Origin: a virus
Lineage: Duplodnaviria > Caudoviricetes
Reading direction: 5' to 3' (one strand)
Virus record (IMG/VR): IMGVR_UViG_3300011442_000009
Span: 11,331 to 75,330 of that record
Length of the DNA stretch: 64,000 nt
The notes beneath the pieces were generated by a model, which saw nothing but the letters and a program-made list of their open reading frames with translations, was not told the DNA's origin and did not search any database. How positions within the stretch are numbered: position 1 is the stretch's first letter; every line of letters starts with the position of its first letter. Positions 129-56,772 of this stretch are shown piece by piece. Made by a program: the position numbers and the translations under genes.

Positions 129-167
129 AAAATAGTTCTTGCAATCCATCCAGCTATCTGCGACTCT
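129..167 (+). promoter_or_regulatory. Putative early promoter: AAAATAGTTC-TTGCAA-N16-CGACTCT
   Basis: The 15-mer AAAATAGTTCTTGCA recurs exactly at 18034 and with 2 mismatches at 63472-63486 (-). An A-rich leader precedes the ATG at 217. Confidence 0.55.
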
Positions 168-216
168 TAGGGTAGCTAGTAATAGTAAACAATAACAAAT
201 AACAGTAGACAAAATT

Positions 217-492
217 ATGCACTCATTATCTGGAATCCGCGCCATGAACCGCAAAGCCGTTGCTCGTTATAACCGCGCCGAGCAGCCGGAGTCTGAAACC
301 TCCCGGCATTGCTCCTATCAGGGCAACCCCGAAGACGGGATCGTCCTTCACTCCGCCAAGCTGCGGAATACTGCGTTCATCATCGGCAAAAAGGCCAAGC
401 TGTTTCTGACCGAGTGGTTCGGGACCAACTCCGCCGACCGCCGGGACAAAATCGTGGAGAGCTATTTTCACACCTCTCCTTCTGCCTCCTAA
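217..492 (+). CDS. Small early protein (91 aa), paralog of an internal module of the 2622-aa virion protein
   Basis: Aligns end-to-end (about 36 identities over about 86 positions, by eye) with MHSPEGIKKMN...IIENHY at 24905-25168 (-). Confidence 0.85.
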   Translation: MHSLSGIRAMNRKAVARYNRAEQPESETSRHCSYQGNPEDGIVLHSAKLRNTAFIIGKKAKLFLTEWFGTNSADRRDKIVESYFHTSPSAS

Positions 493-563
493 CCGCCCCA
501 ACCTCGCCGCCCGCGTCCGGAGGGATACACCTCCGGCCGGGTGGCAACCAATTAAATAAATTT

Positions 564-1031
564 ATGTACGTTGTAAGAGCTATCCGAAACACGAAAACTC
601 ACATCACCCGCTACTGCGCAGTCGATCTCAGCCAAGGTTCCATCATTCCGTTCGTTTCCGTAGACTGGGCGGGCCGCATCACCGCGGAGCTCAACTCCGG
701 GAAAGAGGATTCCAAAGGCTACATGACTTGGGAAGTCGCCGACTGCTATTTCGCCAGTGACGGTTCCCCGCTCCGGCCGAAGACTCTGGACGATCCAGTG
801 CTCGCGCCGGTCAACGTGATGGGCCTCGACTACTCCGTGCCCAAACCCGTGGCGGACTACCTCGCCCACTTGAAGAACACTGTGTTCAACTTGGCACTGA
901 AGATTGACGAGCTACAGGAACAGCGCAAAGGCATCCACGCGACGGGGCGCTACTTTGTGAATGGCGAATCGGTCTCTGAAGCGGCATACCGCGCCACAAT
1001 CGAAAAGTTCTATAACGAAAAGAACGCATGA
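564..1031 (+). CDS. Hypothetical protein (155 aa)
   Basis: Start moved to the ATG at 564 after an AT-rich leader; ATGA overlap with the next gene. Confidence 0.65.
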   Translation: MYVVRAIRNTKTHITRYCAVDLSQGSIIPFVSVDWAGRITAELNSGKEDSKGYMTWEVADCYFASDGSPLRPKTLDDPVLAPVNVMGLDYSVPKPVADYLAHLKNTVFNLALKIDELQEQRKGIHATGRYFVNGESVSEAAYRATIEKFYNEKNA

Positions 1032-1369
1032 AAAAAATCCTAGTGTTGTTGGCGCTAGGGTTTGGGTTGCCTTTGCAGGCGGGGCTCCGGGATTCAGTCA
1101 CTCTAGAGTGGACCTTCGACGGGGCTGCTCCGGATACCTTCATAGTTCACACGAGCACTGACCCCGACCTGCCGCTGGCAGAGTGGCCGGTGCTTCTGGA
1201 GATCCCGGCCACCGAGGCCGGAAAGCTGGTGCTCGAGGTTACCATAAAAATGGTGCCGGGCTCCCACTTTTTCTACCTCACCGCAAAAAACTTTTGGGGT
1301 GAGTCGGACCCTTCTAATACCGTGAACACCCCGGCAGCACCGGGTCGCGGTTTCTTGCGCATACGGTAG
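1028..1369 (+). CDS. Exported fibronectin type III-like protein with signal peptide
   Basis: MKK plus hydrophobic signal and A-x-A-like cleavage region; FN3-like pattern SVTLEW...F/Y...W...FFYLTAKNFWGESDPSN. Confidence 0.75.
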   Translation: MKKILVLLALGFGLPLQAGLRDSVTLEWTFDGAAPDTFIVHTSTDPDLPLAEWPVLLEIPATEAGKLVLEVTIKMVPGSHFFYLTAKNFWGESDPSNTVNTPAAPGRGFLRIR

Positions 1370-1385
1370 CTGCCGACCGGAGTGT

Positions 1386-2861
1386 ATGCGCCCGGAGATT
1401 TTAGAAAAGCTTAGAGCCCACCAGAGAGCACCAGCAGAGCAGCTCCTCCAGATCCTAAAGTCTGGGGGAGTTGCTTTTGATCTCTCAGACACTGGCACTG
1501 GGAAAACTTTTGTGGGCGCGGCAATCGCTGCAGAGCTGCAGGTCCCGGCACTGGCGATTGTCCCAAAGATCGCAGAGACCGCGTGGCACGAAGCCGCCGC
1601 GCATTTCGGTGATAAGATCTCAGTGGTAGGCTGGGAGCTTCTGCGCACCGGTAACACTCTGTATGGACGCTGGGAGAACGGCCCGCCTCCTCCACGGGAT
1701 GAGAGAATGTTTTTCAAGTGCCCGAATTGCCTTTGCAAATTAGACCCGGCGAAAATGATTCCGTGTTCTGCGCACTGGGCCGGGATCCATTGCCTTGAGG
1801 TAAAGACGAATCCCCACAAGTACGGTAAATTCATTTTCAACCCGGCTATCCGCCTTTTAATTTTTGACGAGATCCACCGCGCCGCCGGAGACAGTTTAAA
1901 CGCGGACATGGTCATCGGCGCAAAACGATCCGGCATACCGACGCTCGGTCTTACCGCGACTTTGGCGCACTCTCCTCTGCACCTGAGGGCGACCGGCTAC
2001 CTCGCAGGGCTTCACCAGCTCGGCAATTTTGACCAGTGGTGCGGACAACGCGGTTGCCGAAGGGTGCCGATGCGCGGGGTCCAGTGGCTCGCACCGAAAG
2101 AGAAGCAGGACGAGATAATGCGAGCGATAGGCCGCTCTATCATCCCCTCGAAAGGCGTTCGCGTCCTTCGGTCGGAGATCCCGGACTTCCCGGGGCGCAG
2201 CATACAGGCGGAGCTCTTCGATCTCCCGAAGGAGGATACCGACGAGCTCAATGCACTCTACGAGATACTTTCTGTGCCGCTGGCTGACCTTGAGGCGCGC
2301 GCGGCCGCAGATGTGGACCCAGAGCTCGCCATAACCAAACGGCTGCGTGCAAGGCAACGTATAGAGCTCCTGAAGGTCGGCGTAGCGGAGGAGCTGGGGA
2401 CAGACTACCTCCAGAAGAACCACAGTGTCGTTTTCTTCGTCAATTTCCAGCAGACCGTGGATGAGCTCCTGCGCCGCTTCCCCGGGGCCGGGCTGATTAC
2501 CGGCCAGATTACCGGGAAAAGGCGTCAGGACGGCGTGGCGGCCTTCCAGAGCAACAGGAACCGCGCTTTAATCGTCAATAACCAAGCTGGAGGCATCGCC
2601 CTGAGCCTTCAGGACCTTCATGGAGACTTTCCCCGGGTCGGAATTGTCTTCCCGGCCGACTCTCCGGTCGTAATGGAACAGCTTTTCGGCCGTTTGGCGC
2701 GTTCCGGAGGAAAATCGGATGCACTTTATCGAATTATTTTCGCATCCCGGTCCGTCGAAGTGCCGATGCGCCGCTCCTTAGAGCTGTCCTACAACAACTT
2801 AGCGGCCCTGAAAATTCCTGAAGAAATATCTTGCAATCCTTTCGTCATTGAGGCAAAGTAG
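1386..2861 (+). CDS. Superfamily 2 (SNF2-like) helicase
   Basis: Walker A SDTGTGKT, DEIH box, LTAT motif III, C-terminal QLFGRLAR; Cys-rich insert CPNCLC. Confidence 0.85.
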   Translation: MRPEILEKLRAHQRAPAEQLLQILKSGGVAFDLSDTGTGKTFVGAAIAAELQVPALAIVPKIAETAWHEAAAHFGDKISVVGWELLRTGNTLYGRWENGPPPPRDERMFFKCPNCLCKLDPAKMIPCSAHWAGIHCLEVKTNPHKYGKFIFNPAIRLLIFDEIHRAAGDSLNADMVIGAKRSGIPTLGLTATLAHSPLHLRATGYLAGLHQLGNFDQWCGQRGCRRVPMRGVQWLAPKEKQDEIMRAIGRSIIPSKGVRVLRSEIPDFPGRSIQAELFDLPKEDTDELNALYEILSVPLADLEARAAADVDPELAITKRLRARQRIELLKVGVAEELGTDYLQKNHSVVFFVNFQQTVDELLRRFPGAGLITGQITGKRRQDGVAAFQSNRNRALIVNNQAGGIALSLQDLHGDFPRVGIVFPADSPVVMEQLFGRLARSGGKSDALYRIIFASRSVEVPMRRSLELSYNNLAALKIPEEISCNPFVIEAK

Positions 2862-12292: not shown

Positions 12293-14454
12293 AAATATTC
12301 ACACTCAAGAATCTTACGGACCGCGCCGGTGCATTCGACCGGGTTCCGTGGGATTTTAAATTTGCGTCAGAGACAATCTCCGCGGAGGTGCGCAAGAATA
12401 AAGTAAAGCGGCAGGCGTGGTGCACAGACCCCTCAGTCGAGCATTGTTTCTACTCCGCGTTTATCGGCGTCGCTGAGAGCGGGCGCGTGAACAAGGAGAA
12501 CCCTCCGAAGCTCCTGTGGCTCTTCGTCGCGGACTACGACTGCGTGATTTCCGACGAGCGGATGAAGGAGGCAATCGAGCAGATGCCCATCAAGCCGACG
12601 TATATTGAAACCTCCATCGGAGGCAATCGCCGGTTGATTTGGGTTCTGGAAGAACCGATTTTGCTAGGCTCGAATGAGTTTGCGACTTTCCTCCTGCAGA
12701 AGGCTGAGACTTGGCTCCGGCTCAATCAGCTCCCCATGCTCGACCAACCGGCTTTCATCACCACTACCCGGCTGTTCTGCTGCGGTGACAAGTGGGAGCC
12801 CACCGGCTACGGCCCGGTGCCGCTCGCGAAGTCGCAAACATTTTTCTGCGACTGTGGGAAAGAGTATCGTTTCAGAAGTTACGATGAGATTTTGATTCCG
12901 CTGGACGTCGCTGCAGCAGAATTCGCGAAAAAGTATCCGGAGACTTTCTCGAAATGGCCCGGGGAATTCGTATTGGGAAGCCAAGGTCCCAGCTTCTGGG
13001 TGCCCGGCTCGGAGTCCGCTGGCTCTGCAATCGTAAAGACTGAGGGTATCTTCACGTTCGCAGCACACGCAGAGAAGGCGTTCTTTACTTGGGGTGACCT
13101 TCTCGGACAAGACTTCGTTAAACAATATCGCGACACCGCCATCGCCCGGGCCTCTCACGACATCTGGTGGGACAACCTGAAATTCCACCGCAAAATCGAT
13201 GGGGAGTATGTGTCGATGACGAAGGAAATTTTCGTGAACTATCTCCGGGTAGACTGCGGCCTCTCCGAGAAAGCGGACTCCTCCGGCACATCACCTATCG
13301 CCCAGACCATCCAGCACATCTACAATCACCAGAGGGTCGCCGGGGCAGCTCCGCACGTTCCGCTTCCTACCGGCATTATTTATTCTCAGGGAAAGCGCTG
13401 CTTGAACACTTACACCGGGCGCGTGGTGGAGCCCGCGACGGGAGTGCACCACTGGGGAGATCTGGGAATGTTCCCGTGGATCTCCAGAATGATCGACACA
13501 CTTTTATACCCAAAGCTGCAGAAAGAGTATCTGTTGGCGTGGTATAAGTACTACTATCAGGGCATGCGAAAAAAGCTATGCCGTCCCGGACAGATTCTGA
13601 TTATCCAAGGTCAGGCCGGTTGCGGAAAGTCACTGCTCAGTCGTGAGATCATCGGCCGGTCCGTCGGCGGGTTCTGCGATCCTTCCTCTTTCGTGCTTAA
13701 CGGCAGCAATTTCAACTCAGAGCTTTTCGAGATTCCGCACTGGGCGCTGGACGACGATGCCCCTAGCGCAAGTCAGCACGCCGCCGGAGGAGCTCACGCA
13801 ACGATGAAGAAACTCGTGGCGAATGACTTCTTCATGTATAGCAAGAAATACGAAGTCCCCAGCATGGTTCAGCGTGGCGGTCGGCTGATTGCTACGATTA
13901 ATCCCGACGTGATTAGCCTCAAGTTGATTCCCAGTCTGGACGATGGAATGCACCAAAAGTTTTCGCTGTTCCGTTGCGCAGACTTCGGTCCCGAAAAAGA
14001 CAACTTCACGTTCCCCATGGACCGCGAGGAGATCCAACGCATCATCGAAAGAGAGCTCCCGTATTTTCTGGCATGGCTCGAGGCGTGGGAAGTGCCGGAC
14101 CATATTTCCCGCGGCGACGGCCGCTTCGGTTTCGCAGCCTACCACGATCCCTCCATGGCAGAAACCTCTAAGCAAGCCGGTTCTGCTGCGCCGTTCAAAG
14201 AGATTTTGCTGGAGACCCTGATAGAGCACTTCCGGCAAAATCCGGAGGATACGACTTGGACAGGATCCTCCAACCGGGTCATGCACCTTTTGGAAAACGA
14301 TATCAGAAACCAGCTCGCGCTCCGCTCTTACAAACCCGAAAAAATCAATTCCAATCTCGAAACACTGTCGAAGGAAAATTTCCTCGGCCTAACAACCTCC
14401 TCAGATCCCAGCACCGGCATCCGCCTCTGGACCTTTAAAAAACCCACCGCATGA
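12289..14454 (+). CDS. Primase-helicase (AEP-like N-terminus plus D5/SF3-like helicase)
   Basis: VADYD and ETSIGGNxRLIW primase-like motifs; Walker A GQAGCGKS; FNSEL...DD; KKY/K motif. Confidence 0.85.
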   Translation: MKIFTLKNLTDRAGAFDRVPWDFKFASETISAEVRKNKVKRQAWCTDPSVEHCFYSAFIGVAESGRVNKENPPKLLWLFVADYDCVISDERMKEAIEQMPIKPTYIETSIGGNRRLIWVLEEPILLGSNEFATFLLQKAETWLRLNQLPMLDQPAFITTTRLFCCGDKWEPTGYGPVPLAKSQTFFCDCGKEYRFRSYDEILIPLDVAAAEFAKKYPETFSKWPGEFVLGSQGPSFWVPGSESAGSAIVKTEGIFTFAAHAEKAFFTWGDLLGQDFVKQYRDTAIARASHDIWWDNLKFHRKIDGEYVSMTKEIFVNYLRVDCGLSEKADSSGTSPIAQTIQHIYNHQRVAGAAPHVPLPTGIIYSQGKRCLNTYTGRVVEPATGVHHWGDLGMFPWISRMIDTLLYPKLQKEYLLAWYKYYYQGMRKKLCRPGQILIIQGQAGCGKSLLSREIIGRSVGGFCDPSSFVLNGSNFNSELFEIPHWALDDDAPSASQHAAGGAHATMKKLVANDFFMYSKKYEVPSMVQRGGRLIATINPDVISLKLIPSLDDGMHQKFSLFRCADFGPEKDNFTFPMDREEIQRIIERELPYFLAWLEAWEVPDHISRGDGRFGFAAYHDPSMAETSKQAGSAAPFKEILLETLIEHFRQNPEDTTWTGSSNRVMHLLENDIRNQLALRSYKPEKINSNLETLSKENFLGLTTSSDPSTGIRLWTFKKPTA

Positions 14455-16358: not shown

Positions 16359-17547
16359 GGCTCTCGGACGATCTTACCGGTCAGTCACTGGCAGGGTGCT
16401 GGGCCTTCCAAGCGCCGCACCGGCGACTCCCAAACCGTTGGAACACGAGCCCGACTACACGGCGGACCAAGAACGCGCCGCTGCGATGCACTGGCAGACC
16501 CGTTACAAACAACTCAAAGGCAAGTATGAAAAAATCCTCCATGAGAGCACTGTCATTGACTCTCTCGTTACTGATATCCGGAGCCTCGCTCCCACCAGCT
16601 ATTCCTCCGCACCGGCGGTTATCAAAAACCGCACCACGTCGGGAACTTCGCAGAGTGCCCTGCTACTGTTTTCCGACACCCACGTGGGGCAAACCATTTC
16701 GCCTGACCAGACTCTTGGCTTCGGGGAATATAATTTTTCGGTGTTCCTTTCTCGGCTCAAATACCTCGAAGAGTCGGTCATTTCCATACTTGAGAACCAT
16801 ACGACTACGAAGATCGACGAGCTCGTCATCGCAATGCTTGGAGATATGCTCCATGGAGCGCTTAACCACGGAGCAGAAGCAGACCAGCAGGTCACCCTCT
16901 TCGAACAGTATTACTCCGCCGGGCATGCTATCGCTCAGTTCTTCCGAAATCTCGCACCCCATGTTCCGGTCCTGAAAATTAAGACCGTCGTGGGAAACCA
17001 CACCCGGTGGATGAATCAGCACAAAATGCCGGCGGGGAATCGATTCTCCAATCTCGATATGTTCCTCTACGCCCTCACGGAGGCGCTCACGAGCGACATC
17101 AAAAACATCGAGTGGGACCTGAACAAGCAGCCCTTTTCGGTGTTCACAATTCAGGGGCATGTTATCCGCGCCAGCCACGGTGACCATCTCCGGGGAGGCG
17201 ATAAATCTTTAGGTATCCCGAATCACGCAATCGCCCGAGAGATCTCGGCGACGACACAATTATTCGCTAAGCACGGGCAGCAAGCACCGCATCTATACGT
17301 CTGCGGACACCTCCACAGGTCGATTCAACTCCCGCACGCGCTGGGAGAAGTAATTGTGAACGGCGGATTCCCGGGTCTAGACGGGTATGCGCTGGCCGGT
17401 AATTTCAACCCCATAGATCCTACGCAACGTCTGCTCTTCGTGCACCCGAAATACGGCCGGACTGCCGAGTATACCCTGTCTTTGAAGTTTGCTGAGAAAT
17501 TCGAGGAACCCCCCTACGCCATTCCGGGTAATTTTGCTGCGGCATGA
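16270..17547 (+). CDS. Calcineurin-like metallophosphoesterase with N-terminal HTH/Myb-like domain
   Basis: WSPEE...EIAEALGRS; SDTH, GDMLHG, GNH, HGD, GHLH motifs. Confidence 0.85.
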   Translation: MKNKNPWSPEETNRLLKLRSEGKTNQEIAEALGRSYRSVTGRVLGLPSAAPATPKPLEHEPDYTADQERAAAMHWQTRYKQLKGKYEKILHESTVIDSLVTDIRSLAPTSYSSAPAVIKNRTTSGTSQSALLLFSDTHVGQTISPDQTLGFGEYNFSVFLSRLKYLEESVISILENHTTTKIDELVIAMLGDMLHGALNHGAEADQQVTLFEQYYSAGHAIAQFFRNLAPHVPVLKIKTVVGNHTRWMNQHKMPAGNRFSNLDMFLYALTEALTSDIKNIEWDLNKQPFSVFTIQGHVIRASHGDHLRGGDKSLGIPNHAIAREISATTQLFAKHGQQAPHLYVCGHLHRSIQLPHALGEVIVNGGFPGLDGYALAGNFNPIDPTQRLLFVHPKYGRTAEYTLSLKFAEKFEEPPYAIPGNFAAA

Positions 17548-18062
17548 AAGAGATTCCGCTAACTCAAGGAAAAGTCGCATTAGTTGACGACGCTGATTTC
17601 GAGTTCCTCAATCAGTGGAAATGGTACGCCATGCTAAACAAACGGGTTTGGTATGCCGTACGAGACGTCCGGACTTCTGACGGGAGCCGGAGGCTCGAGC
17701 AGATGCACCAGATACTCATACCGTCGCCCCAAGTCGACCACCGAGATCACGACGGGTTAAATAATCAACGCGCCAATCTTCGAGCATGCTCGGTTCGCCA
17801 AAACGGGGCCAACAAACGGAGATGGTTATCAAAAACCACGAGCCGATTTAAAGGGGTATTTGAACGCAAAAACCGAAGAACTGGTGAGCCTAACGGTCAA
17901 TACCGGGCACAGATACGCGTCGACTATAAACTGCATAATCTGGGGACATTTGGCACGGAATATGAAGCTGCTCAGGTGTATGATGCCGCCGCAAAGGAGC
18001 ATTTTGGGGAATTCGCCCACCTCAATTTTCCTGAAAATAGTTCTTGCACTTTGACCGGCTAG
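17544..18062 (+). CDS. HNH endonuclease with AP2 DNA-binding domain
   Basis: VDHRDHDGLNNQRANLR; SRFKGV...YRAQI...LGTF...AAxxYDxAA. Confidence 0.9.
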   Translation: MKEIPLTQGKVALVDDADFEFLNQWKWYAMLNKRVWYAVRDVRTSDGSRRLEQMHQILIPSPQVDHRDHDGLNNQRANLRACSVRQNGANKRRWLSKTTSRFKGVFERKNRRTGEPNGQYRAQIRVDYKLHNLGTFGTEYEAAQVYDAAAKEHFGEFAHLNFPENSSCTLTG

Positions 18063-21438: not shown

Positions 21439-21566
21439 GGCCGAACAAGCGGCTTTTCATCTTCCTCGAGGATCTTGTCCACTTCATCCCAAAAGGAATC
21501 CCTGTGGACGTCATCGCTCGCCAGCCGGGCAAGACGAGTCAATTCAACTTTTTCGCTATCTTTCAT
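21420..21566 (-). CDS. Small acidic protein (48 aa; not in ORF track)
   Basis: MKDSEKVELTRLARLASDD...; ATGA overlap with the stop of the giant gene. Confidence 0.5.
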   Translation of the reverse strand: MKDSEKVELTRLARLASDDVHRDSFWDEVDKILEEDEKPLVRPREERD

Positions 21567-24500
21567 TTTTCGGGTCTCTTCGTTATTTTGTCGGCAAGGC
21601 GTTCTGCGATGCCTTCTCGAATCATACCAGCTTTTTTGAGCTCAGTCAAGTAGGATCCGAGATCCAACCGGCTCCAGTTACGGTCGGCCCAAAGCTTCTT
21701 CTCGGCAAACCAGAGACCACCTTGGAGTGCGTCCGGGAGCACGCCCAGCTGCTCAGCGGCGTCCGCAAAAGCTTTCTGTGAAAAGAAAAAGTCTGGGTCA
21801 GTCACGGCGGCTTCGTTGCCCGGCAGAATCCGCCAGCGGTCCTGAAAACCCTCGTATCCCAACCGGCGCATGGTGCGCTGAGCCCAGACGTCAATCGTCG
21901 CGCCGTGTCCGGTTCCCACGAGGTTCTGGATGAAGTTCGAGACCTTCGGGCCTTCGACGTTCTGGAGCCAAGCGCGCGCCAAAACTTTCAACACGTGTGT
22001 CGAGTGCATCCCGTAAAGTTTGTCATTGCTCTTGCGGGGCTGGAGATCGTGCTCCTTGATCCACTGCGCCATAAAGGCGGGCTCAGTGGCTGCGCGCTTG
22101 CCTTTCACTTTCTTCGCGGCGAGCTGTTCGTCGTACCAAGTTTTCCAGCTACCATCCTCGAGCATCCGGGAGCCTTCCAGAAATTTCTGGATCTTCTCGT
22201 CGAACTGACCGGCCTTGAAGCCTTCGAGGGCCTCCATCGCGAGCTGGAAATTCTCCAGAGGTTTATTCCGAGGACTCGTCGCCGCGAGTAGCTCAGCAAA
22301 TATCTGAGCGTGCTCACCGAATTCCGCATTCAGCTTCGGCACGAAGTCGGAGTACCATTTGAGACCCTCCTTAAACGCATCTGAGTCGAAGTATTGCTTT
22401 GCAAATTCCACGAGCTTATCCGAAAACGCTTTGATCGCGGCTTCCTCGGACCCGGCCTTTTTCGCGAGAGGAGAATTTTTGATGTCGGAGCGTATCACGG
22501 CATCTGCCGTCTTCGGTTCCACGGATTCAGGATACACACGGGCCTTCTGGGCGCGCGTGAGTTGCTTGGTGATTGTGGACGGTAGCGGCTTGCCAGTCTT
22601 GAAGTACTCGGCAGCCTTTTCCTCGGTAGCGGCGTCCGGTATGAGAGGAGGTTCGCCCTTCAAAAGAGGCTTGAGTGCGTCGTGTGCGTCGCGATAGTCA
22701 GTGATCGCGGTCTCGCCGGTGCCGCCAGTTTTTACTTCCTCGCCCAGCACAGGATCCCAGATCGAAACTTGATTGTTTCGCTCCGCGAAGTCGACGGAAT
22801 TTTCACGATGCTTCTGAGAGGGTAACGCATTGACGTCCACGCTAACGCGGTTGCCATCGGGCATAGCGAAAACTCCGAGTGCGGTGCCCTTCTCGTCCAG
22901 AATTCTGCCGTAGTCGCCAAGGGCTTTGATCACGTTCTCGCGTGTGAGCTCCTCCTTCGGGAGGTTGACGCTGGCGAGTGTCACGACGTCCGTAGGAGAC
23001 TTCTTGCTGACGGTCCAGACGGTGCCGTCCTTGTTGAACGTTTGCCCAAAGTTTGCGCCGGTGCGGACCTTCTCGAGCTCCGCATCGAATTCTTTGGACT
23101 TGTAGCCGGGCGTGAACTGAACGCTTGGTTCCCGAGTTACTCGCCGCTTTCCGCCAACGTCCGAGATCACTCCATAGCCGTTTGTTTCGGCAACGTCAGA
23201 GATCGCCTTTTCCTGAGCGGGAGTTAGATCCCCTTTGGAGACGTACAAGTGGTCATCCTCACGGATCACTCGAGCCCAGCCTTTGCTGGTTTCCAAAACT
23301 CGCTGATTCGGATTAGTCTCCCGGGCACTCTCCGGCTGGGCCTCTTTCCCAAGGAGCTCGCGGGCGGTCGTTTCGTGATCTTCCGCGACGGTCTTCCAGT
23401 TGCCGGAGCGATCCAAATAGAACTTGTCTTCCCGCTTGTCGAATTCTCCCGGAGAAAACTGTGCACGGTCCCGGGTCAGAGCCCCGGACGTAGCCTGCGC
23501 GCTCATTTCAGTGGTCTCCTTCGGAGCGGAAATGAGCGGGAGATTGTCCAGTTTCTCGTGCTCGTCGTACGTGAAGAGCTGTACGCCTTCAGACTCCACC
23601 GTGCGTTTAGCTTTGTCGTCAAGCAGATGCACATCCATGTTGTCGATCTTGCCGAGGTTTGTTTTCACAAACTCTTTGATGTGTGGCGCGAGATTCTCCC
23701 AATCCCGCTGGCGCGCCTCGACGGTCAACGTGCCGTTGTTCTTGGAGTAGTTGATCCGGGCAAAACCTTTTTGGAGGGCCTCGAGGCGATTGTCTTCGCC
23801 CTTGCTCTTAACCTTCAAGCCATACTTGCTGATGACGTCGGCGTTCTCGTTCAAGTAGTCGTGGTGCCATTGGTCCCCGAGCTGCGCCATCTTGCCGTCA
23901 GGGAAGAGCCACGCCTTCGAAAAGGTGCCGCGCCCTTCTTTCAGTTTGTAATCGGGTTTTGATTTGCGCTCTTTGCCGCCAGCCATGAATTGGATCCGGG
24001 AGTCCCCGGCGCTGAACGTGCCCCGGTTCTCCACAGCTTTAACTTGGTCACCTCTGAATGCTATGTAATGGTCGGTGTTCGGCGCGAGAGCCATCCCGCG
24101 AAAACGCTTTTCGACGTTCGTCATTTTTATACCGTCGAATCCCATGGCTTCCATCGTCCGGCGAGCCAGTTCGCTACCCATCAGGTGTCCATCATATACG
24201 TCGAGGATCGCCTCGCTGTTCCCAATAGCGTGAATAGCGTCCTCGGCCGTAATTGATTCTCCGTCGAACTTTTCGATAACGTCTTCCCAGACCCTTTGGC
24301 CGTCTACGTCGAGTTTCTCGGCCTCTGCCAAAAGCGCATCATGAAGCTTTATGACCAATCCCGACTCGTTTCCATCTTCGTCGTACTTGAGTTCGAAACG
24401 AGTACCACCCTTCTTATCCATCACGACGGGATTCTCGAGCTTCAGAAAGGCCGATATCACTCGAGGAGACTTCCCCACGAGCTCGGCTCTCGCCTGTTTG

Positions 24501-27500
24501 ACAGCTTCGTCGAGGATCGCGTCGGGGTCTAGATTTAATTCGAACCCAAGCTCCGTTTTTTCGGTAGTCGGGAGCTGTTGCTCGAGCTCATCCGCTCTGC
24601 GACCAATTCGAATCTCTAAATCGGGTCCAACTCCGGCGTAGTTCCGACGGGCGTCGGAAACGTCAGTCGAAAAATAATGACCGGCACCGACCGCATTTTC
24701 GACATTCGCTTTCTCTTTTAAGAATTCGTCAAACTTGTGCGTAGTGCCGTGATACACTTCAATCGGTTGACCCTCTTCGTCAACGACCTTACTGTCGCCA
24801 AACCATTTTTTGAAGTACGGAGAGTCCGTGCCCTTCTCTTTCCAAAGCTTTTTGGCCTCGCGAATTTCTTTCGGCTTTGTCACACCGGCGGATTCGGCCG
24901 GAGAGAATTGCGCATTGGTATAGTGGTTCTCGATGATCCGGTTCTTCGCTTCATCGCTCTTCGCCGATTCGATCTTTCTGAGGAGCTCCTTTGCTTCCGG
25001 ACCGGGGCTCACGAAAATGGTATTGCGGTGCTTGGCGCTGTGCAGAATCATCCCATCTTTGTCGTCTCCGGCATAGCTGCTGATGCGGGTCGTCTCACCC
25101 TCCGCGCCGCGACGTTGCCGGGCCACTTCCTCGTCGTTCATCTTTTTGATGCCTTCGGGGGAGTGCATGAACTGAACCTTCGGCTGGGTACCCAGATCTT
25201 CGGTACCCAAGTCAAAAACTTTCCCGTCCCCAAGTTCTACCGGCTCAGCTTTGCGCACCCATTCGTCGGGTAGCACCAGATCAGTCAGGGGGCGGCCCGC
25301 TTTACGGGATTGGTCTTGCAGCATGTCGAAAACATCCTGCGGCAGCTCGACTTTCATCGTTTTGCCGCCGAAGGTCCGGGCTCGTCCCGGGTTTAAAGTA
25401 AACCAAGAACTGCCGACGCCTTCGGAGCCGCTATAAACCGGAACGGTCCTACTCTCCAATTCTGGAATTTTGAATCCTTTTTTCTCGAGAGTGTTCGAGT
25501 ACGTGGTGCCCTTCGCCGGTGCCACTCCCGGGATATCCTCGAGCGCCGTGATCTGCGCAAACTTGCCTTTGCCGATTGCAGTGAAGTCCTGATAGCCATC
25601 GAAAGTGGCGCGGTACTTTTTGCCGTCCGGTCCAGTTACTGCGATTTCGCGCTTGCCTTCGCCGGGCATGAAACTGACATTGCCCTCTTTGAGGCTATTG
25701 GTTGCCCGGCGCACTGCGCTCATAACATCCAGCCGGGAGCCTGACGGGTCTGCTCCTATCTGTTTTGCTACCTGCTGCAAAAGGTGAGTGGGCAAGGTCT
25801 CGGTAAGAGAGCTCATGTCCGCATTGTTCAGACCGGGAAGAGCGTCTACGAAAGCAGACACCGGCAATGTCCCGTTCTTCATCCGCTCGACTACGCTCTT
25901 CCGCTGTTCTTTCGTGAGAGCGGTATACTTTTCCCCGGGCATGAACCCGGCGGAGAGCGTGAGAGTATTTCCACGGAACTGCGGCACCTCGGGGGCGTGG
26001 TCCGCTTCCAAAATGCGTTCGAGGTTCAGCTTCTGGATTACCTCGATGAAAGAGGGCATCGTCGCACCCGCGGCTTTCGCAGCAGCTTCCATCTGATTGC
26101 GTAGCGGATTGACTTCCAAGATCGGTCGTCCTTCGATACCGAGCTCCTGCGCGCGTTCACCGGTAAAGGTGCCGCGAGGCTCAATCGGCTGCACCAACCG
26201 GCCCGGCATAGTCGCCGCGCTGATGTCCTGTCCTGCGATGTTCAACGGGAACTTTCCGTGACCGAGCTTATTCGTCGCGGGAAGTTTGAAATTGAAGAGC
26301 ATGTTGACGAAGTCCGCTCGATTCTGATCGAGAGCGAGAACTGCATCAGCGCGCACCGGCGGTTTGAAAAATCCACGACCCTGCGTCTCGCTAGGGACTA
26401 CCAACGGCGCACCGGAGCCCGTCGTACCGGACATCTGGTTCTGGACGAACCGCTGAGTGTCTTCATAGAGAGACAGCCAAGCGTCCTTAGTGAAAGAGCC
26501 GGTAGCGGGATCGATTTCGTACGGAGAAAGCTTCGCCATGTCCGGGTTCTTCGCCAGTACTTCCGCCAGCTTCTGTGCATTGGCGGCGAAAACTTCCGGA
26601 GCCCACCCTTGTACTTGGTATTTGCCATCTTTAGTACGTCCGACGGACTCCGGAAAAAAGGTCTTCTCCCAGAGCTTGCGCGCGTCCTCCGGCATGCGCC
26701 GGTAAAGCTCGATCATTTCCCGGCGGGTCTTCCTTTTGGAAGAGATCGCCGCGGCCGGTTCGTCTGGAGCGGAAAGGTAGTTTAACTTCATCCCGGAGCG
26801 TCCTGCAATCGCTTCCGCGGTGATGCCGAGAATTTCACGCTGGGTCTTCGATGCGCCGGGCAAAGCTACGTCAGGGGCCTCCTGTGCGAGCGTGGCGGCG
26901 CTCTGTGCGGACTGTTCTACTTCCTGCTGAGTGCGGGGAAGGCTTGCAGCGCCGCCGGTACGCGCCGGTTGAGCAGGCTGCACGACCGGTTTCTCCGGGG
27001 CGAGCTCACGACCCTGCGCTCCGACCTTTTTCGCGAGATCGAGATTGAGAGGAATTTTCAGACCTTCTGAAACGCGCCCTTCGATAGGATTTTTTCCGAC
27101 GAATTCCATCAGGTGCCCAACGGTACGAGCAAGCACTTCAGGGACCTGATTACCCGGCTTCAGGGTGTTGCCAGTGCGTTTAAACCACGCGTCGAAATTC
27201 TCAGCGGCGATCTCTCGAGCGATGTACCGTTCAGCGGACGCTTTCTGCTCTTCAGGAGTGAGAATCTCTCTCCAGTTGAATTGCACGCCCTGTTGTTCAA
27301 TGCCGTGGTTGACAACCTGTCGGATTTCAGTGTCAGAAGGCGGAGGATTGCCAGCACGACGAGCTTCGTCGTGGTATTGCGTGAGAGCATCCTGAAAAAG
27401 TTTCTCGGCGGCATCCTGACGTCCCCAGCCCGTGTCTTCCAAAATGGTCTGATGCCAGCTCTCGCCCGGCACAACTCCACCGAGTCGATCAGCGTAGTTG

Positions 27501-29431
27501 CTGCCGATCTCGTCCATATTGTGATTCGCGATGATCTCTTGGTCGAGCTCTCGCATGGCATCTTCGCCAAGGACGTTCTCCATCGCGTGCCGTGCCTCAT
27601 GCGGAGCCGCATCGATGCCACTGACTGAGCCAGTCGCCGGTTTGTCGATCAGGATTATAACCTTGCGACCTTTGTGGTCGAAAGCCATTCCGTTTTGCTG
27701 CGCCATTTTTCTGGCAGCGTTAGGAGCAACCCCGGCTTTGAGCAACGCAGCTTCGGCGCTCGGTGCATCTGCTGCGGCGAAGACGTCGATCTTGTTGTCG
27801 ACCCCAGTGGAGAAATCCTGCACGGAATTGATGCGAACTTTCCGTCCGTCAGTGAGGTTCGGGAAAGCCGCCTTATTCATCGCGACAAAAGCGGGATCCG
27901 AAGCGGGGCTCGCCACCCGGGGCTGAGAGTTACCAGCGAACCAACGCGGTGCGATAATCTGACCGCTAACGACGTCACGAAAAGTCTTACCAGCGCCGCC
28001 TGCGAGGCCAAAAGCGACGCCCATACCCAGCCCCTGTCTTTCCTGAGGCGTGTCAGAGGCGGCTGCGAGGCCGATATCAAGAGCTGCGCCGTGCGCGACC
28101 TTCCCGAGAGCCCCGGGAGTGGAGCGGGCGACATCTTTTACGAGTTGCTCATACGAACCCGTGATCTGGTTCTTTACGAGGTTCTCTCCGGCTTGTGTAA
28201 AACCGGTTTTGACTTTCTGGCCAATCTTGTGAAGGTCCGTCGCGATACTCTTGCCAAGTTTGTACCCAGTGGCGGCACCCAAAAAATTGGAGACAATAGG
28301 AATCTCTCCGACTCCCGGTACGGCGTGCGCAACGGCCGCGCCAGATACCGCGCCAACGAGAGGAGCAGTTTTCTCACCAGCTTTAATACCCAGCTCTGCG
28401 GTTTTACCCGTGCCTTGGATTACCCTGCCAGCTACCTTTTGAGCGACGTCCGCCGGGCTCTTAATTTTTGCGGCTAGCGCGGCGACATTTTCGGTTTGCC
28501 CAGCGAGATCAATCGCGCCACGTGTGAGTGCTTTCGCACCGGCTCCCGTGGCGTTCATCCCGGCTCCGAAAAGCAGGAAGGACACTGGTTCTCCGCCAGC
28601 CATAGCGCCAACCTCTTCAGGGCGCACCGGCATACCGGCGGTTTCCAGATTGCGGACATTCTCAGCGGCGATAGGGACGTTCGACAGTATCGGCCCATGG
28701 CCGGACATCGTCTCCTTCTGGATCTGGTGCCGGGAAAGCGCATCAAGAAAATCGGCCTGCTTATCTTCTGGAGTGTAGTCCGCGAGCTGCTTCGTGAGGT
28801 GAGCTCCTCGTGCAAGGGAACCGACGACCTGTCCAGCTTGGTGAATGAGACCCCCCACCCCTGCTTCGGTGGCTGCGATTGCTTCCGCGGCCCGGCGCTG
28901 GGTTTCAAGTTCGTTCTGTGCACGCGTGGCTTCATCGACACCGAAAAGGGGTGCCACTAGACCGGCCGCATGCCCTACGGCGACGCCTGCGACATTACCG
29001 ATCCACTTGCCCGCACCGGCTGCCGTGCTTCCAATCGTACCAGCTACTTGCTTTGCTCCTTCGAGGGTCTTTCCGAGATCTCCCTCGACGATTCCACTGA
29101 CTACCGGGGTGCTCTTGTACCACGGCTGCTGCCGGATCTGATTGTACACGTCCTGTACCTTGGATAGTAGCTCAGGAGTGCGTTGGGCTTGGGGAATGGC
29201 GTCGTACGCGGCAACCACGTCGAAAGAATGATCCTGACCAGCGAGTGCGACGATCTGATCCGGGGTAAAATCCCGGAGGACATCAAAAGCGGGTGCTTGC
29301 TGATTCTCGTCAGGGACGAAAGAAGCGATCTGTTCTGGGGAGAGAGCTACGGGGACTCCCGGCGCTTCAGAGGGCGCGGGAGCGTCAGGAGTAAAACTGG
29401 CAACCTGTTCCGGACTTAGTGTAAGCGGCAT
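21563..29431 (-). CDS. Large polyvalent (probably ejected) virion protein, 2622 aa: HExxH peptidase, ART-like domains, HhH-glycosylase-like C-terminus
   Basis: APHEARH...EIAAE zincin; WFGDSKVVD..G.P..VYHGT...G.GHYF...GFDGI (ART-PolyVal pattern); WY...ATSP...GPKV..F..NL...TID.W; seven xQF(M/S/T)P-type linkers. Confidence 0.85.
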   Translation of the reverse strand: MPLTLSPEQVASFTPDAPAPSEAPGVPVALSPEQIASFVPDENQQAPAFDVLRDFTPDQIVALAGQDHSFDVVAAYDAIPQAQRTPELLSKVQDVYNQIRQQPWYKSTPVVSGIVEGDLGKTLEGAKQVAGTIGSTAAGAGKWIGNVAGVAVGHAAGLVAPLFGVDEATRAQNELETQRRAAEAIAATEAGVGGLIHQAGQVVGSLARGAHLTKQLADYTPEDKQADFLDALSRHQIQKETMSGHGPILSNVPIAAENVRNLETAGMPVRPEEVGAMAGGEPVSFLLFGAGMNATGAGAKALTRGAIDLAGQTENVAALAAKIKSPADVAQKVAGRVIQGTGKTAELGIKAGEKTAPLVGAVSGAAVAHAVPGVGEIPIVSNFLGAATGYKLGKSIATDLHKIGQKVKTGFTQAGENLVKNQITGSYEQLVKDVARSTPGALGKVAHGAALDIGLAAASDTPQERQGLGMGVAFGLAGGAGKTFRDVVSGQIIAPRWFAGNSQPRVASPASDPAFVAMNKAAFPNLTDGRKVRINSVQDFSTGVDNKIDVFAAADAPSAEAALLKAGVAPNAARKMAQQNGMAFDHKGRKVIILIDKPATGSVSGIDAAPHEARHAMENVLGEDAMRELDQEIIANHNMDEIGSNYADRLGGVVPGESWHQTILEDTGWGRQDAAEKLFQDALTQYHDEARRAGNPPPSDTEIRQVVNHGIEQQGVQFNWREILTPEEQKASAERYIAREIAAENFDAWFKRTGNTLKPGNQVPEVLARTVGHLMEFVGKNPIEGRVSEGLKIPLNLDLAKKVGAQGRELAPEKPVVQPAQPARTGGAASLPRTQQEVEQSAQSAATLAQEAPDVALPGASKTQREILGITAEAIAGRSGMKLNYLSAPDEPAAAISSKRKTRREMIELYRRMPEDARKLWEKTFFPESVGRTKDGKYQVQGWAPEVFAANAQKLAEVLAKNPDMAKLSPYEIDPATGSFTKDAWLSLYEDTQRFVQNQMSGTTGSGAPLVVPSETQGRGFFKPPVRADAVLALDQNRADFVNMLFNFKLPATNKLGHGKFPLNIAGQDISAATMPGRLVQPIEPRGTFTGERAQELGIEGRPILEVNPLRNQMEAAAKAAGATMPSFIEVIQKLNLERILEADHAPEVPQFRGNTLTLSAGFMPGEKYTALTKEQRKSVVERMKNGTLPVSAFVDALPGLNNADMSSLTETLPTHLLQQVAKQIGADPSGSRLDVMSAVRRATNSLKEGNVSFMPGEGKREIAVTGPDGKKYRATFDGYQDFTAIGKGKFAQITALEDIPGVAPAKGTTYSNTLEKKGFKIPELESRTVPVYSGSEGVGSSWFTLNPGRARTFGGKTMKVELPQDVFDMLQDQSRKAGRPLTDLVLPDEWVRKAEPVELGDGKVFDLGTEDLGTQPKVQFMHSPEGIKKMNDEEVARQRRGAEGETTRISSYAGDDKDGMILHSAKHRNTIFVSPGPEAKELLRKIESAKSDEAKNRIIENHYTNAQFSPAESAGVTKPKEIREAKKLWKEKGTDSPYFKKWFGDSKVVDEEGQPIEVYHGTTHKFDEFLKEKANVENAVGAGHYFSTDVSDARRNYAGVGPDLEIRIGRRADELEQQLPTTEKTELGFELNLDPDAILDEAVKQARAELVGKSPRVISAFLKLENPVVMDKKGGTRFELKYDEDGNESGLVIKLHDALLAEAEKLDVDGQRVWEDVIEKFDGESITAEDAIHAIGNSEAILDVYDGHLMGSELARRTMEAMGFDGIKMTNVEKRFRGMALAPNTDHYIAFRGDQVKAVENRGTFSAGDSRIQFMAGGKERKSKPDYKLKEGRGTFSKAWLFPDGKMAQLGDQWHHDYLNENADVISKYGLKVKSKGEDNRLEALQKGFARINYSKNNGTLTVEARQRDWENLAPHIKEFVKTNLGKIDNMDVHLLDDKAKRTVESEGVQLFTYDEHEKLDNLPLISAPKETTEMSAQATSGALTRDRAQFSPGEFDKREDKFYLDRSGNWKTVAEDHETTARELLGKEAQPESARETNPNQRVLETSKGWARVIREDDHLYVSKGDLTPAQEKAISDVAETNGYGVISDVGGKRRVTREPSVQFTPGYKSKEFDAELEKVRTGANFGQTFNKDGTVWTVSKKSPTDVVTLASVNLPKEELTRENVIKALGDYGRILDEKGTALGVFAMPDGNRVSVDVNALPSQKHRENSVDFAERNNQVSIWDPVLGEEVKTGGTGETAITDYRDAHDALKPLLKGEPPLIPDAATEEKAAEYFKTGKPLPSTITKQLTRAQKARVYPESVEPKTADAVIRSDIKNSPLAKKAGSEEAAIKAFSDKLVEFAKQYFDSDAFKEGLKWYSDFVPKLNAEFGEHAQIFAELLAATSPRNKPLENFQLAMEALEGFKAGQFDEKIQKFLEGSRMLEDGSWKTWYDEQLAAKKVKGKRAATEPAFMAQWIKEHDLQPRKSNDKLYGMHSTHVLKVLARAWLQNVEGPKVSNFIQNLVGTGHGATIDVWAQRTMRRLGYEGFQDRWRILPGNEAAVTDPDFFFSQKAFADAAEQLGVLPDALQGGLWFAEKKLWADRNWSRLDLGSYLTELKKAGMIREGIAERLADKITKRPEK

Positions 29432-29436
29432 ACACC

Positions 29437-29465
29437 ACAGTCGTCTATCCTGCCACTGGGTGCCA
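29437..29465 (-). promoter_or_regulatory. Putative late promoter TGGCAC-N16-CGACTGT
   Basis: 5 nt upstream of the giant gene ATG. Confidence 0.65.
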
Positions 29466-30929
29466 CATATTATCTGCGCCTAGGTACCCTCTACCGAGCC
29501 CGGGAATGGTCCCGATAATCCTCCCGGCGGGCACTCCAGCGGCCGGGGCCGCTGTCGATTTCCGCAAAACTTTATCTGCAGCGACGCGTTCGTCATCCGA
29601 AGTGAAAACCGTTTTGGGATTCACGTTGGGATTCGTGTTAGCCTGCTCCATGGCCTTCATGATCGCCGGGCGCGCAGCTTCCTCACGTCCGCGGATCACT
29701 TCGTCACCCATTTCCAACAAGAGCTGCCGGGTAGCGGGAGTGAAAGAACCTCTGCGATTGACCGCGAGATCCCAAGCGTTTTTAAGAAGGTCCATTCGAG
29801 GCTGCTGCGTCTCGAATTTTTCCCACTTGAATTCTCGGATCACGCCTTCGGGATCGTACAATTTAATGAGCGACTCCGCGAGGCCGAGATCGGTCATATT
29901 CATGTTCGCTTTGCCCTGTTGCTCGGGAGTCAGTCTCCGAACACGATCCGCGTTTTTCTCGAAGGTCGTGGCGTACGGGACGGACTTCTGCCAGCTCTGG
30001 TACGGGAGCTCTTTCAAGAGGTTCTCACGGATCTTGTCCGCAGTGAAAATGGTTTGCTCTTTTTGCTTAATCGGGATGCCCTGCAGCTTCGGTTTGATCA
30101 CCGGAGGAGTCTGAGGCGGGGCCGGGAGCGTCCCAGGAGTAACCACGGGCAACGCAGCGGGAGCCTGTGCGGCCGCGGCAACGACATCCTTTTTGAGATC
30201 CTCGACTCGAGGAACTACTGCACCGGTAGGATGCCCAGCCGCGGATGCCGTGCTATCTTTGGGATCGTACGGACGGAGCGACGGATCGTATTTCGTGGGA
30301 TAGACTCCCGCGAGAGGGTGCGACTTGGGCATGAAAGCTTCGAGCTGGGTAACGTAATGCCAGTACTGCTCAGAACCATCGTACCCATCCGCAGGAGGAG
30401 TCACGTCTTGGTTCAGAGAATTCAGATACTGCACGACTTCGCTGCCGTCACCGAGTTTGACGACGCGGCTGGAAACTGGCTTGAGCATGTTCGCCCACTT
30501 GTCCACCTGCCCCAGAGTAGCGACGCGTTGAGCTCCGACCTTTGCGAGCTTTTGAAAATCCGTACGGCCCGTCGTGGGATCGATGTAGTTGTTGATGTCA
30601 TCACCAAACCAACCCATCGTTTCCTGCGCGGTCTTCAGACTGGTCTGTCCCCAGTTCGTTTGTGCAAGCTCAGCGGCGGTCTTGGCCTGCTGCAATTGCG
30701 CAGTGGGTTCTACCAACGGGAGCGCGGCTTCCGCTTGCGCGGTGCCTAGCTGCGTCTCTGCGCGGGCGCGCATTCCAAAACGGTCGACGATTTCTTGCGA
30801 GGTGATCTGTCCCTTGCGAAAAGCGTCGATCATGGAATTGACTGCATCCTGTCCCACCGGCATTGCCGGAGTGACGAGCGGCCCTTGGGGGACGCTGATG
30901 CCCTGTTGATCTTGACCAAGTCCTGCCAT
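29445..30929 (-). CDS. Putative internal virion/DNA ejection protein (494 aa)
   Basis: Position between pilot-like genes and the giant gene; Q/A-rich helical composition. Confidence 0.6.
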   Translation of the reverse strand: MAGLGQDQQGISVPQGPLVTPAMPVGQDAVNSMIDAFRKGQITSQEIVDRFGMRARAETQLGTAQAEAALPLVEPTAQLQQAKTAAELAQTNWGQTSLKTAQETMGWFGDDINNYIDPTTGRTDFQKLAKVGAQRVATLGQVDKWANMLKPVSSRVVKLGDGSEVVQYLNSLNQDVTPPADGYDGSEQYWHYVTQLEAFMPKSHPLAGVYPTKYDPSLRPYDPKDSTASAAGHPTGAVVPRVEDLKKDVVAAAAQAPAALPVVTPGTLPAPPQTPPVIKPKLQGIPIKQKEQTIFTADKIRENLLKELPYQSWQKSVPYATTFEKNADRVRRLTPEQQGKANMNMTDLGLAESLIKLYDPEGVIREFKWEKFETQQPRMDLLKNAWDLAVNRRGSFTPATRQLLLEMGDEVIRGREEAARPAIMKAMEQANTNPNVNPKTVFTSDDERVAADKVLRKSTAAPAAGVPAGRIIGTIPGLGRGYLGADNMWHPVAG

Positions 30930-30931
30930 AA

Positions 30932-31369
30932 TTATCGAATGTTGAGTGTTGCACCCGGTGCCATCCATCCAGAGACGGAAGCGATCTTAGGAATCCCTTC
31001 ATCGGGAGTCCCCGGGATCTGCGTCGCCAAATTCGTGTCGATTCCCGGCTGCACCACTTTCACCGGGGTCTGCGTTACGTTCGTACCCGGCGTCGGTTTA
31101 GGCGTCGGCTGATTCAAAATCGTTCCGGCTCCGTCTGCCTTCACTGCCGGTTGTACCACTGGCGACTGAGTCCCCATATTTAAGATCGACCTTTCCAGTG
31201 GAGAGCGCATCTGTGTTACCGGCCGAATGGGCGCAGGAGCTTGACCCGCGAGCACCTGATTCTGCATCCGGCTCCCAGTCAAACGAACGGCATTGTTCAT
31301 CCGCGCGAGCTGCGCGTGCACCGGTGCCTGCAGGGAGGAAGCCGACCATATAAATCCTACGTTGCTCAT
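30932..31369 (-). CDS. Hypothetical Pro/Thr-rich protein (145 aa)
   Basis: Packed ORF; start chosen at MSNVGF. Confidence 0.55.
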   Translation of the reverse strand: MSNVGFIWSASSLQAPVHAQLARMNNAVRLTGSRMQNQVLAGQAPAPIRPVTQMRSPLERSILNMGTQSPVVQPAVKADGAGTILNQPTPKPTPGTNVTQTPVKVVQPGIDTNLATQIPGTPDEGIPKIASVSGWMAPGATLNIR

Positions 31370-42033: not shown

Positions 42034-42074
42034 TAGAACAGTCGAAGGTTACCGAACCTTGCGCCAGTTAAAAG
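42034..42074 (-). repeat. 41-bp direct repeat, copy B (contains late promoter TGGCGC-N16-CGACTGT)
   Basis: 37 of 41 positions identical to 40395-40435. Confidence 0.85.
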
Positions 42075-56508: not shown

Positions 56509-56772
56509 TTAACAGTCGAAGGTATCTGTTTGGCGCGCTACTTTTTCTCTAAGCCAGTACTTTCGAGGGCACTGCTCGGTACAAAGTGAGGTTTTTGAAA
56601 TGATCAGGCACTTGCAGACCCCGCAGACGTCCTCTTCCCGGTCCGGGCACACGTTGCAGACCTGTGCACGGGTCCAAATTGTCTTCCGGGAGGCCAAAAT
56701 CTCGTATCCGCGGAATTTCCACCAGCACGAGCGAACGAATGCCATCAAAAAGTGCCAAAAAAGCATGATCAT
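56509..56772 (-). CDS. Small Cys-rich protein (RxxxCxxCP...CxxCxC...CP..W), 87 aa
   Basis: ATGA coupling; six Cys in a conserved-looking pattern. Confidence 0.7.
   Translation of the reverse strand: MIMLFWHFLMAFVRSCWWKFRGYEILASRKTIWTRAQVCNVCPDREEDVCGVCKCLIISKTSLCTEQCPRKYWLREKVARQTDTFDC
56512..56540 (-). promoter_or_regulatory. Putative late promoter TAGCGC-N16-CGACTGT
   Basis: 7 nt upstream of the portal ATG. Confidence 0.65.

Follow-up and report, generated by a model that had tools for sequence, protein, structure and literature searches.

The small gene and its counterpart inside a giant protein

The window analysed here is a stretch of 64,000 nucleotides, bases 11331-75330 of a 75,330-bp IMG/VR virus record that is estimated to be 100% complete. 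Near its start lies a stand-alone gene for a 91-aa protein, and a related domain is found within a 2,622-aa protein, hereafter the giant, encoded on the other strand (Table 1).

Table 1. Features of the window that are discussed in the text. In linker and junction sequences a slash marks the boundary.
Feature	Position	Strand	Basis
Bipartite motif variant TTGCAA-N16-CGACTCT	139-167	+	49 nt upstream of the small gene's ATG
Stand-alone gene (P0002), 91 aa	217-492	+	ORF and translation; member of the helix / three-strand / two-helix domain family
SF2 helicase-like gene	1386-2861	+	Pfam ResIII/Helicase_C; PHROG DNA helicase; in synteny with the small gene among the close phages
Giant, 2,622-aa cysteine-free polyvalent protein	21563-29431	-	Pfam ART-PolyVal and DUF7178; among tail-fibre and virion genes
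DUF7178 match in the conserved C-terminal core	21704-21955	-	Pfam; in all homologous giants scanned
Variable cassette region with seven F/x(P) linkers (F1163, F1254, F1421, F1509, F1815, F1992, F2106)	23114-25945	-	Linker motif counts and BLAST segment ends
ART-PolyVal module, residues 1510-1815, directly after the embedded domain	23987-24904	-	Pfam E 4e-17 on the isolated segment
C-side linker A-Q-F/S-P (F1509/S1510)	24899-24913	-	Equivalents in homologs: ESHF/MP, ESHF/LP, EGQF/S, or spacer and xQF/[SMK]P
Embedded domain copy, giant residues M1422-F1509	24905-25168	-	BLASTP, shuffle test, family HMM
N-side junction V-Q-F/M-H (F1421/M1422)	25163-25177	-	Same aromatic/Met junction in homologs
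HExxH region, residues 520-790 (H611-E612-x-x-H615 at 27587-27601), candidate zincin-like peptidase	27062-27874	-	Motif and model
Bipartite motif TGGCAC-N16-CGACTGT	29437-29465	-	5 nt upstream of the giant's ATG

In a BLASTP comparison, Met1 of the 91-aa protein was paired with Met1422 of the giant and the alignment reached residue 1514, with 39 of 95 positions identical (41%), 61% positives and an E value of 3e-17. The Smith-Waterman score was 157; shuffling the small protein 1000 times gave 35.8 +/- 4.6 (maximum 58), hence z = 26.6. Giant residues 1422-1505 were matched by the family HMM at 1e-27. The similarity claimed in the original prediction was thus highly significant, and the coordinates it had assigned to the module, corresponding to M1422-F1509, were exact. 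Its further claim that the module ends exactly at the A-Q-F/S linker held to within four residues: the homology stops at E-N-H-Y (around residue 1505), and F1509 lies four residues further on. When the giant was compared with the whole record by tblastn, the embedded module was its only part with a second copy.

Close stand-alone homologs of the 217-492 product showed 76%, 64% and 55% identity to it, and orthologs of the gene were present in all five related phages. Chance similarity, or an ORF that is not coding, has practically no chance of explaining the match. Only the small size of the ORF speaks for it, against the shuffle statistics, the 63 family homologs with conserved motifs described below, a confident predicted fold and the orthologs in the related phages; the E value, the z score and the family search already refute it. 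On this evidence, the 91-aa gene is related over its full length to one module of the giant, and we regard this observation as real and robust.

The small gene had been described as the first early gene and as an immediate-early one, and neither description was supported. The window begins 11.3 kb into the record. The gene is not the first, because the ~11 kb upstream of the window are filled with same-strand ORFs and window base 129 is the end of another ORF, ~84 codons long. The ortholog of the small gene is also in the middle of the arm in four relatives, and the apparent first position was an artefact of the window edge. The 87-bp gap in front of it is A/T-rich and is not a genome end. As for timing, no sigma-70-like promoter was found upstream of the gene, and a search upstream of its orthologs found no conserved promoter. 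The sole upstream signal was a variant of a bipartite motif that heads late genes. The window contains ten copies of this motif, TNGC-N18-CGACTNT, where 0.62 would be expected; eight of the ten were on the late strand, and six of these eight were no more than 26 nt from the start of an ORF of at least 40 aa. Such closeness to ORF starts suggests leaderless or short-leader late mRNAs. The variant was not conserved upstream of the small gene's orthologs. As a late-like motif precedes the stand-alone gene, both copies of the domain could be made at similar times. The start context of the gene is A/T-rich and SD-less, as for most genes of this phage. Further examples of the motif are at 42038-42066(-), 56512-56540(-) and 12661-12689(+); its upstream half is T[AG]GCGC-like on the late strand and TTGC[AT][AG] on the plus strand.

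The functions encoded by the plus arm are those of replication and recombination: an SF2 helicase, a PD-(D/E)XK nuclease, PolA, a DUF5906 primase-helicase-like protein, an exonuclease and a UvrD helicase. In each of L003-L006, four relatives of the phage, the SF2 helicase gene is followed downstream, within ~0.8 kb, by the ortholog of the small gene; in the window phage the small gene instead precedes the helicase gene by ~0.9 kb and is accompanied by two ORFs without counterparts in the relatives. Given the downstream position in the relatives, we take 130-1385 to be a local rearrangement or insertion. Of the two extra ORFs within 130-1385(+), 564-1031 and 1028-1369, the second has an N-terminus resembling a signal peptide. 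Distant family members are surrounded by small ORFs on the same strand, arranged in arrays, and have no helicase gene close by. A functional link between the small gene and the SF2 helicase was considered and rejected: the adjacency is limited to the close phage group and was therefore treated as synteny.

A protein of ~170 aa, encoded at 17544-18062(+) and carrying an AP2 domain in L003, recurs at differing positions in the related phages (L003, 6169-6657 and 14580-15089; L004, 5477-5947 and 7465-7980; L005, four copies). In one related phage its gene separates the helicase gene from the small gene, and its behaviour is typical of a homing endonuclease.

A domain family with free and embedded members

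An exhaustive, profile-free search of 1.84 billion representatives gave 63 hits at E <= 1e-3. Fifty of them were at most 125 aa long, three had 126-400 aa and ten exceeded 1,000 aa; one of these ten, P0058 (1,108 aa), was rejected as a beta-helix false positive. The family is split between ~50 stand-alone representative clusters (72-125 aa) and nine true giants of 1.7-3.3 kaa, which carry the domain internally or C-terminally. Both the free and the embedded form paired in the original prediction are therefore found among homologs. A word-indexed search for longer homologs had returned none; the exhaustive search later found them.

The residues Met1, N11, S33, H45-S46-A47, R50, T52, F63, E81 and F84 are near-invariant in the family; the conserved set also takes in (K48) and a C-terminal aromatic. 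In 31 of 50 stand-alone proteins, a motif E-x-[YFH]-[FY] lies at most three residues from the end. Structure prediction by AlphaFold2 with the family alignment was confident (pLDDT 88.4) and gave a helix (residues 4-21), three strands (33-37, 41-46 and 51-55) and two helices (57-69 and 73-82).

Catalogued families gave no match to this domain. Pfam searches at E up to 1 with the ORF, the module and 49 family members returned nothing beyond scattered noise, and neither PHROGs nor NCBIfam contained a matching family. A sequence-profile search of the PDB found no match; the structural model gave a best E of 0.64 in Foldseek against the PDB, a best Z of 4.3 in a wide VIA-align search and TM <= 0.54 in the ESM Atlas by shape, while BFVD contained only an uncharacterised homolog. 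A "universal stress protein" retrieved from the ESM Atlas by features (0.91) was discarded, since it shared only 115-120 features and was judged a chance match. The nearest structural neighbours were TbiB1 (Z 3.0), an Atlas PqqD (TM 0.40) and DUF3567 (TM 0.52-0.58), all at noise-level scores. PqqD or RiPP-recognition-element-like domains and DUF3567 resemble the family in having a three-stranded sheet followed by helices, but the family has an extra N-terminal helix and no sequence relation to them, and the likeness is not evidence of a common function.

Single-sequence pattern scans of viral contigs for the family found nothing. Alignment A1 was too diverse for the contig scan, and a reduced alignment used instead identified three loci. 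No relatives of the family were found in GenBank phages or, with the pattern used, in GTDB species genomes.

In a careful, unrooted maximum-likelihood (ML) tree, the window's free gene grouped with other free genes (P0003, P0004, P0007 and P0008; support 95/93), and its embedded copy fell in a clade of embedded copies (P0049, P0029, P0028 and P0040; 96/80). Judged from this tree, the free and embedded copies are old paralogues and not the result of a recent duplication, and the 91-aa gene and giant residues 1422-1509 are two such paralogues of one previously unannotated small domain family. Embedded copies occupied 4-6 places on the ML trees, but the AU test did not reject a single embedded clade (p 0.46), and we dropped multiple independent captures as an established fact. 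With this p value and an unrooted tree, capture can only be called likelier than release, and the number of fusion events may be anything from one to several.

The original prediction held that a whole small gene had been captured into the giant. This agrees with the published model of polyvalent proteins (PMC5512222) and with the retention of the module's Met next to F/SP or F/QP linkers, while the direction it assumed is not settled by the AU test. Three considerations make capture from free genes the favoured direction: the free genes are more numerous and more diverse, the module's Met can follow a complete linker, and accretion is the published model (PMC5512222). For the opposite course, the domain would have been born in polyvalent proteins and the free genes would be released modules, with F/M linkers supplying the ATG. 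This is consistent with F/M being a general linker form in the window giant (F/MPGE twice and F/MAGG) and with the free gene P0036, which nests within the embedded clade and has the embedded-type core R-x-S-S-F. The single embedded clade allowed by the AU test would permit a root between embedded and free copies, and the tail of the free copy, F-H-T-S-P, is faintly linker-like. We nevertheless consider release improbable. Free copies are far commoner and more diverse (~50 against 9 representatives) and occur in small-gene arrays of otherwise unrelated contigs; in P0042 and P0040, where the lineage linker is F/SP or F/QP, the linker precedes the module and the Met is kept behind it; and the published model describes accretion from solo versions (PMC5512222).

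Architecture, linkers and cysteine content of the giant

The giant consists of a conserved N-terminal core (residue 1 to ~1165-1190), a variable middle and a conserved C-terminal core (2107/2270-2616). Its recognisable parts are ART-PolyVal, the HExxH region and DUF7178, together with at least four more linker-bounded modules. The match to ART-PolyVal (PF18760) scored 54.8 bits against a cut-off of 31.2, and 63.7 bits on the isolated module; the embedded domain and the ART module are contiguous in the distant giant P0056 too. A giant of this kind was present in all four related complete phages, with a varying middle. The free gene was likewise present in all four, and the embedded module in two of the four. 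Cassettes of the homologous giants included GNAT, DUF3293 and DUF3990, and the cassette order varied between giants. The embedded module was 52-62% identical between giants whose N-cores were 31-53% identical; being more conserved than the cores, it is under strong constraint.

No cultured-phage relatives of the giant's core were found; only the ART module had matches. These were "NUDIX hydrolase" features of Tunturiibacter phage Tunturi_5 and Myxococcus phage Mx1 (36-39% identity), which are probably ART-NUDIX fusions or mis-annotations. A GNAT or DUF3293 cassette occupies P0029 residues 1207-1268 and P0028 residues 1524-1585, slots that hold other modules in the window giant, an example of cassettes being exchanged at the linkers.

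The giant has disparate domains, an ART-PolyVal match above the cut-off, late and virion genes as neighbours, and solo versions of its parts in relatives. By these properties it is a phage polyvalent protein, and it is probably virion cargo.

The modules are separated by short linkers of the form aromatic/x-Pro, and the ends of BLAST segments between giants coincided with them. The motif F[MSTKQL]P occurred eight times in the window giant against 1.7 expected, 5-10 times in nine of ten giants and three times in P0029, with ~2 expected per giant. Its middle residue depends on the lineage: M in P0056 and P0062, L in P0052, S in P0042, Q in P0040, K in P0028, and M, S or T in the window giant. 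The linker DNA varies by synonymous codons, so that selection acts on the protein.

The edges of the embedded domain follow these linkers. The module Met is preceded by an aromatic residue in 8 of 11 embedded copies: F1421 in the window giant (KVQF/MHS), F in P0028, P0029, P0040, P0049, P0062 and P0059 (a 348-aa fragment), and Y in P0056. In P0042 the lineage linker is Y/SP and the module Met comes after it. On the C-side, the terminal Phe of the module is followed by MP in P0056, LP in P0052 or S in P0029, and otherwise by a short spacer leading to xQF/[SMK]P; in P0042 and P0059 the copy is C-terminal and ends at this Phe. In the subclade formed by P0051, P0052 and the G001 giant, the first helix is replaced and the module Met is missing. 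The proposed QF boundaries were thus borne out, as the edges coincided with aromatic/x(P) linkers in the homologous giants.

Cysteine is absent from the giant: its 2,622 residues contain none, compared with a mean of 1.35% in 23 other large ORFs (P 3e-16), and nine of nine homologous giants (1,681-3,293 aa) lacked it as well. Cysteine suppression in ejection proteins, reported for Schitoviridae, has been attributed to passage through the periplasm (PMC11445570, PMC2784036); in the controls that we counted, there was no cysteine in T7 gp15, T7 gp16 or 3,159 aa of N4 vRNAP. The contrast extends to the domain itself. Cysteine was present in 56 of 59 stand-alone domains, usually as R-H-C-S-Y, and in 0 of 12 embedded copies. 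Of four pairs of solo and embedded sisters, no two had replaced it in the same way (C to S, C to A, C to G/T, and C to S/D). We consider this contrast the strongest indirect support for the view that the embedded copy travels in the virion and that the free copy does not.

The HExxH region is a candidate for self-processing. H611, E612 and H615 were invariant in 12 giants and a downstream E was nearly invariant (>= 90%). The AF2 model of residues 520-790 had a pLDDT of 79.5, and its long structural matches were nearly all zincins, with Z scores of 4.8-5.8 that are below the tool's reliable level (Z 6): collagenases (5.8), YbeY (5.2), lethal factor (5.1-5.2), PprI (5.0) and the Pro-Pro endopeptidases, or PPEP (4.8-5.0). 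Pfam peptidase and MPTase models did not match the region, and Foldseek returned nothing significant for the model. On the strength of motif and model, self-processing by this region is plausible.

Supply of the domain during infection

We propose that the two copies supply the domain in two stages. The giant comprises an N-terminal part of ~1,160 aa with an HExxH...E zincin-like region, variable effector cassettes and a DUF7178 C-terminal part, and its embedded module would have arisen by capture of a whole ORF. A polyvalent giant of this kind would be made late, probably packed into the head and expelled with the DNA, and hence the embedded copy would most likely be a pre-made dose of the domain at entry. 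Cleavage after the linker Phe, perhaps by the giant's own zincin-like region, may then set the module free. The stand-alone gene in the replication arm would later provide a version of the domain made in the cytoplasm. For the whole of this explanation, namely old paralogues, a polyvalent giant that is packed and ejected, and a two-stage supply, we estimate a probability of roughly 0.6. Of the overall reading in the original prediction, the correspondence of the module to a free gene and the giant as probable virion cargo stand; the first position, the immediate-early timing, the same activity of both copies and the anti-defence role are not supported. Our best guess for the domain is a small binding or metal-independent catalytic effector that acts on a host factor or nucleic acid early in infection; that this role is specifically anti-defence seems rather unlikely.

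It is possible, though we would not expect it, that the paralogues have diverged so far that they retain a common fold and no longer a common target or role. They are only 41% identical and belong to distant, separately conserved clades (P0003, P0004, P0007 and P0008 against P0049, P0029, P0028 and P0040). The free copies are basic (mean pI 9.5) and have R-H-C-S-Y, whereas the main embedded clade is near neutral and has R-x-S-S-Y, His31 and Cys32 both being lost; the two window copies, with pI 9.7 and 6.9, also differ in the His-Cys of this motif. Because of these differences the copies may not do the same thing, and the same activity originally claimed for both was not supported. Divergence of role is harder to reconcile with the conservation, in both forms, of N11, S33, L-H-S-A-K, R50, T52, E81 and the terminal aromatic, and the loss of Cys is explained by the ban on cysteine throughout the giant.

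The other point to be weighed is whether the giant is cut. Left uncleaved, the module would act in cis within the intact ejected protein, and the F/xP sequences would be flexible connectors or docking motifs. There is precedent in N4 vRNAP, a polyvalent protein with a peptidase-like domain that is packaged unprocessed (PMC5512222), and no protease assignment in the giant reached confidence. We give an uncleaved giant a sizeable chance, short of even, because two observations sit poorly with it. The middle residue of the linker is uniform within a protein and differs between lineages (M, L, S, Q, K), as is expected of a co-evolving recognition site, and free proteins end at the aromatic that precedes the linker x-Pro in P0056, P0052 and P0029. 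The strongest form of the cleavage proposal would make the giant a genuine polyprotein, cut behind each linker aromatic by the zincin-like domain it carries. The P1' preference of this domain would co-evolve with the lineage (M, L, S, Q, K), and fragments with the termini of free gene products would be released in the newly infected cell; whole ORFs could be plugged into and out of the cargo, with cysteines purged at each insertion. We hold this full version to be tentative and less likely than not.

The two-stage supply by a polyvalent giant can be set against known systems. Iyer, Burroughs, Anand, de Souza and Aravind (2017) described polyvalent proteins, LPD domains and solo versions of such domains (PMC5512222). 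In their model, giants are repeatedly pieced together from solo versions, with possible release by embedded zincin peptidases (PMC5512222). The window giant is like their proteins in being a multidomain product of a late gene with disparate modules that also exist as solo genes. The 91-aa domain, by contrast, is outside the catalogued Pfam LPD and other families; a solo and an embedded paralogue coexist here in one genome; the presumed capture takes in the whole unit between the start Met and the C-terminal aromatic; and the cassettes are split by a short aromatic/x-Pro linker with a lineage-specific middle residue, whereas the word "linker" is absent from the main text of PMC5512222. Polyvalent proteins, solo versions of domains, repeated accretion and probable release by zincins were thus already in that work. 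What is new here is the domain family, the end-to-end capture of an ORF, the lineage-specific linker and the purging of cysteine on embedding. As the accretion frame was published in 2017, our finding refines it and does not overturn it.

Several podovirus proteins offer a further comparison. N4 vRNAP gp50 and DEV gp71, T7 gp15 and T7 gp16 are very large virion-internal proteins in which cysteine is fully suppressed, as in the giant. The giant showed no sequence similarity to podovirus ejection proteins, and neither an RNA polymerase nor a lytic transglycosylase was detected in it. The P1 Dar and DdrB head proteins and phi24B gp47 are large head-packaged proteins with metallopeptidase domains, but their domains differ from those of the giant. 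DdrB undergoes proteolytic processing before packaging (PMC5512222), and gp47, a polyvalent protein of 2,811 aa, was found in phi24B virions by proteomics (bioRxiv 10.64898/2026.04.10.717836).

These results add an unannotated, structurally confident domain family to the cargo of early phage infection. They also offer a natural comparison between a domain made in the cytoplasm, basic and with Cys, and the same domain carried in a probably ejected giant, Cys-free and near neutral. The end-to-end module boundaries, the lineage-specific aromatic/x-Pro linkers and the repeated removal of Cys amount to rules, open to test, by which phages would build ejected multi-effector proteins from free genes, and zero Cys combined with linker periodicity gives simple sequence criteria for finding such cargo in metagenomes.

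Other products of the late arm share some of these features. Cysteine is also scarce in the two late ORFs that lie immediately upstream of the giant: 29445-30968(-) has 1 Cys in 507 aa and 31979-32950(-) has none in 323 aa. Neither matches a family, and both may be additional ejection proteins that make up an "ejection operon" together with the giant. The motif [QSG]F[MST]P occurred outside the giant in only three ORFs of at least 80 aa, all in the late arm: at residue 409 of 29445-30968(-), residue 113 of 37000-39039(-) and residue 80 of 57343-59283(-). Other virion proteins may thus be processed at the same linker-like site.
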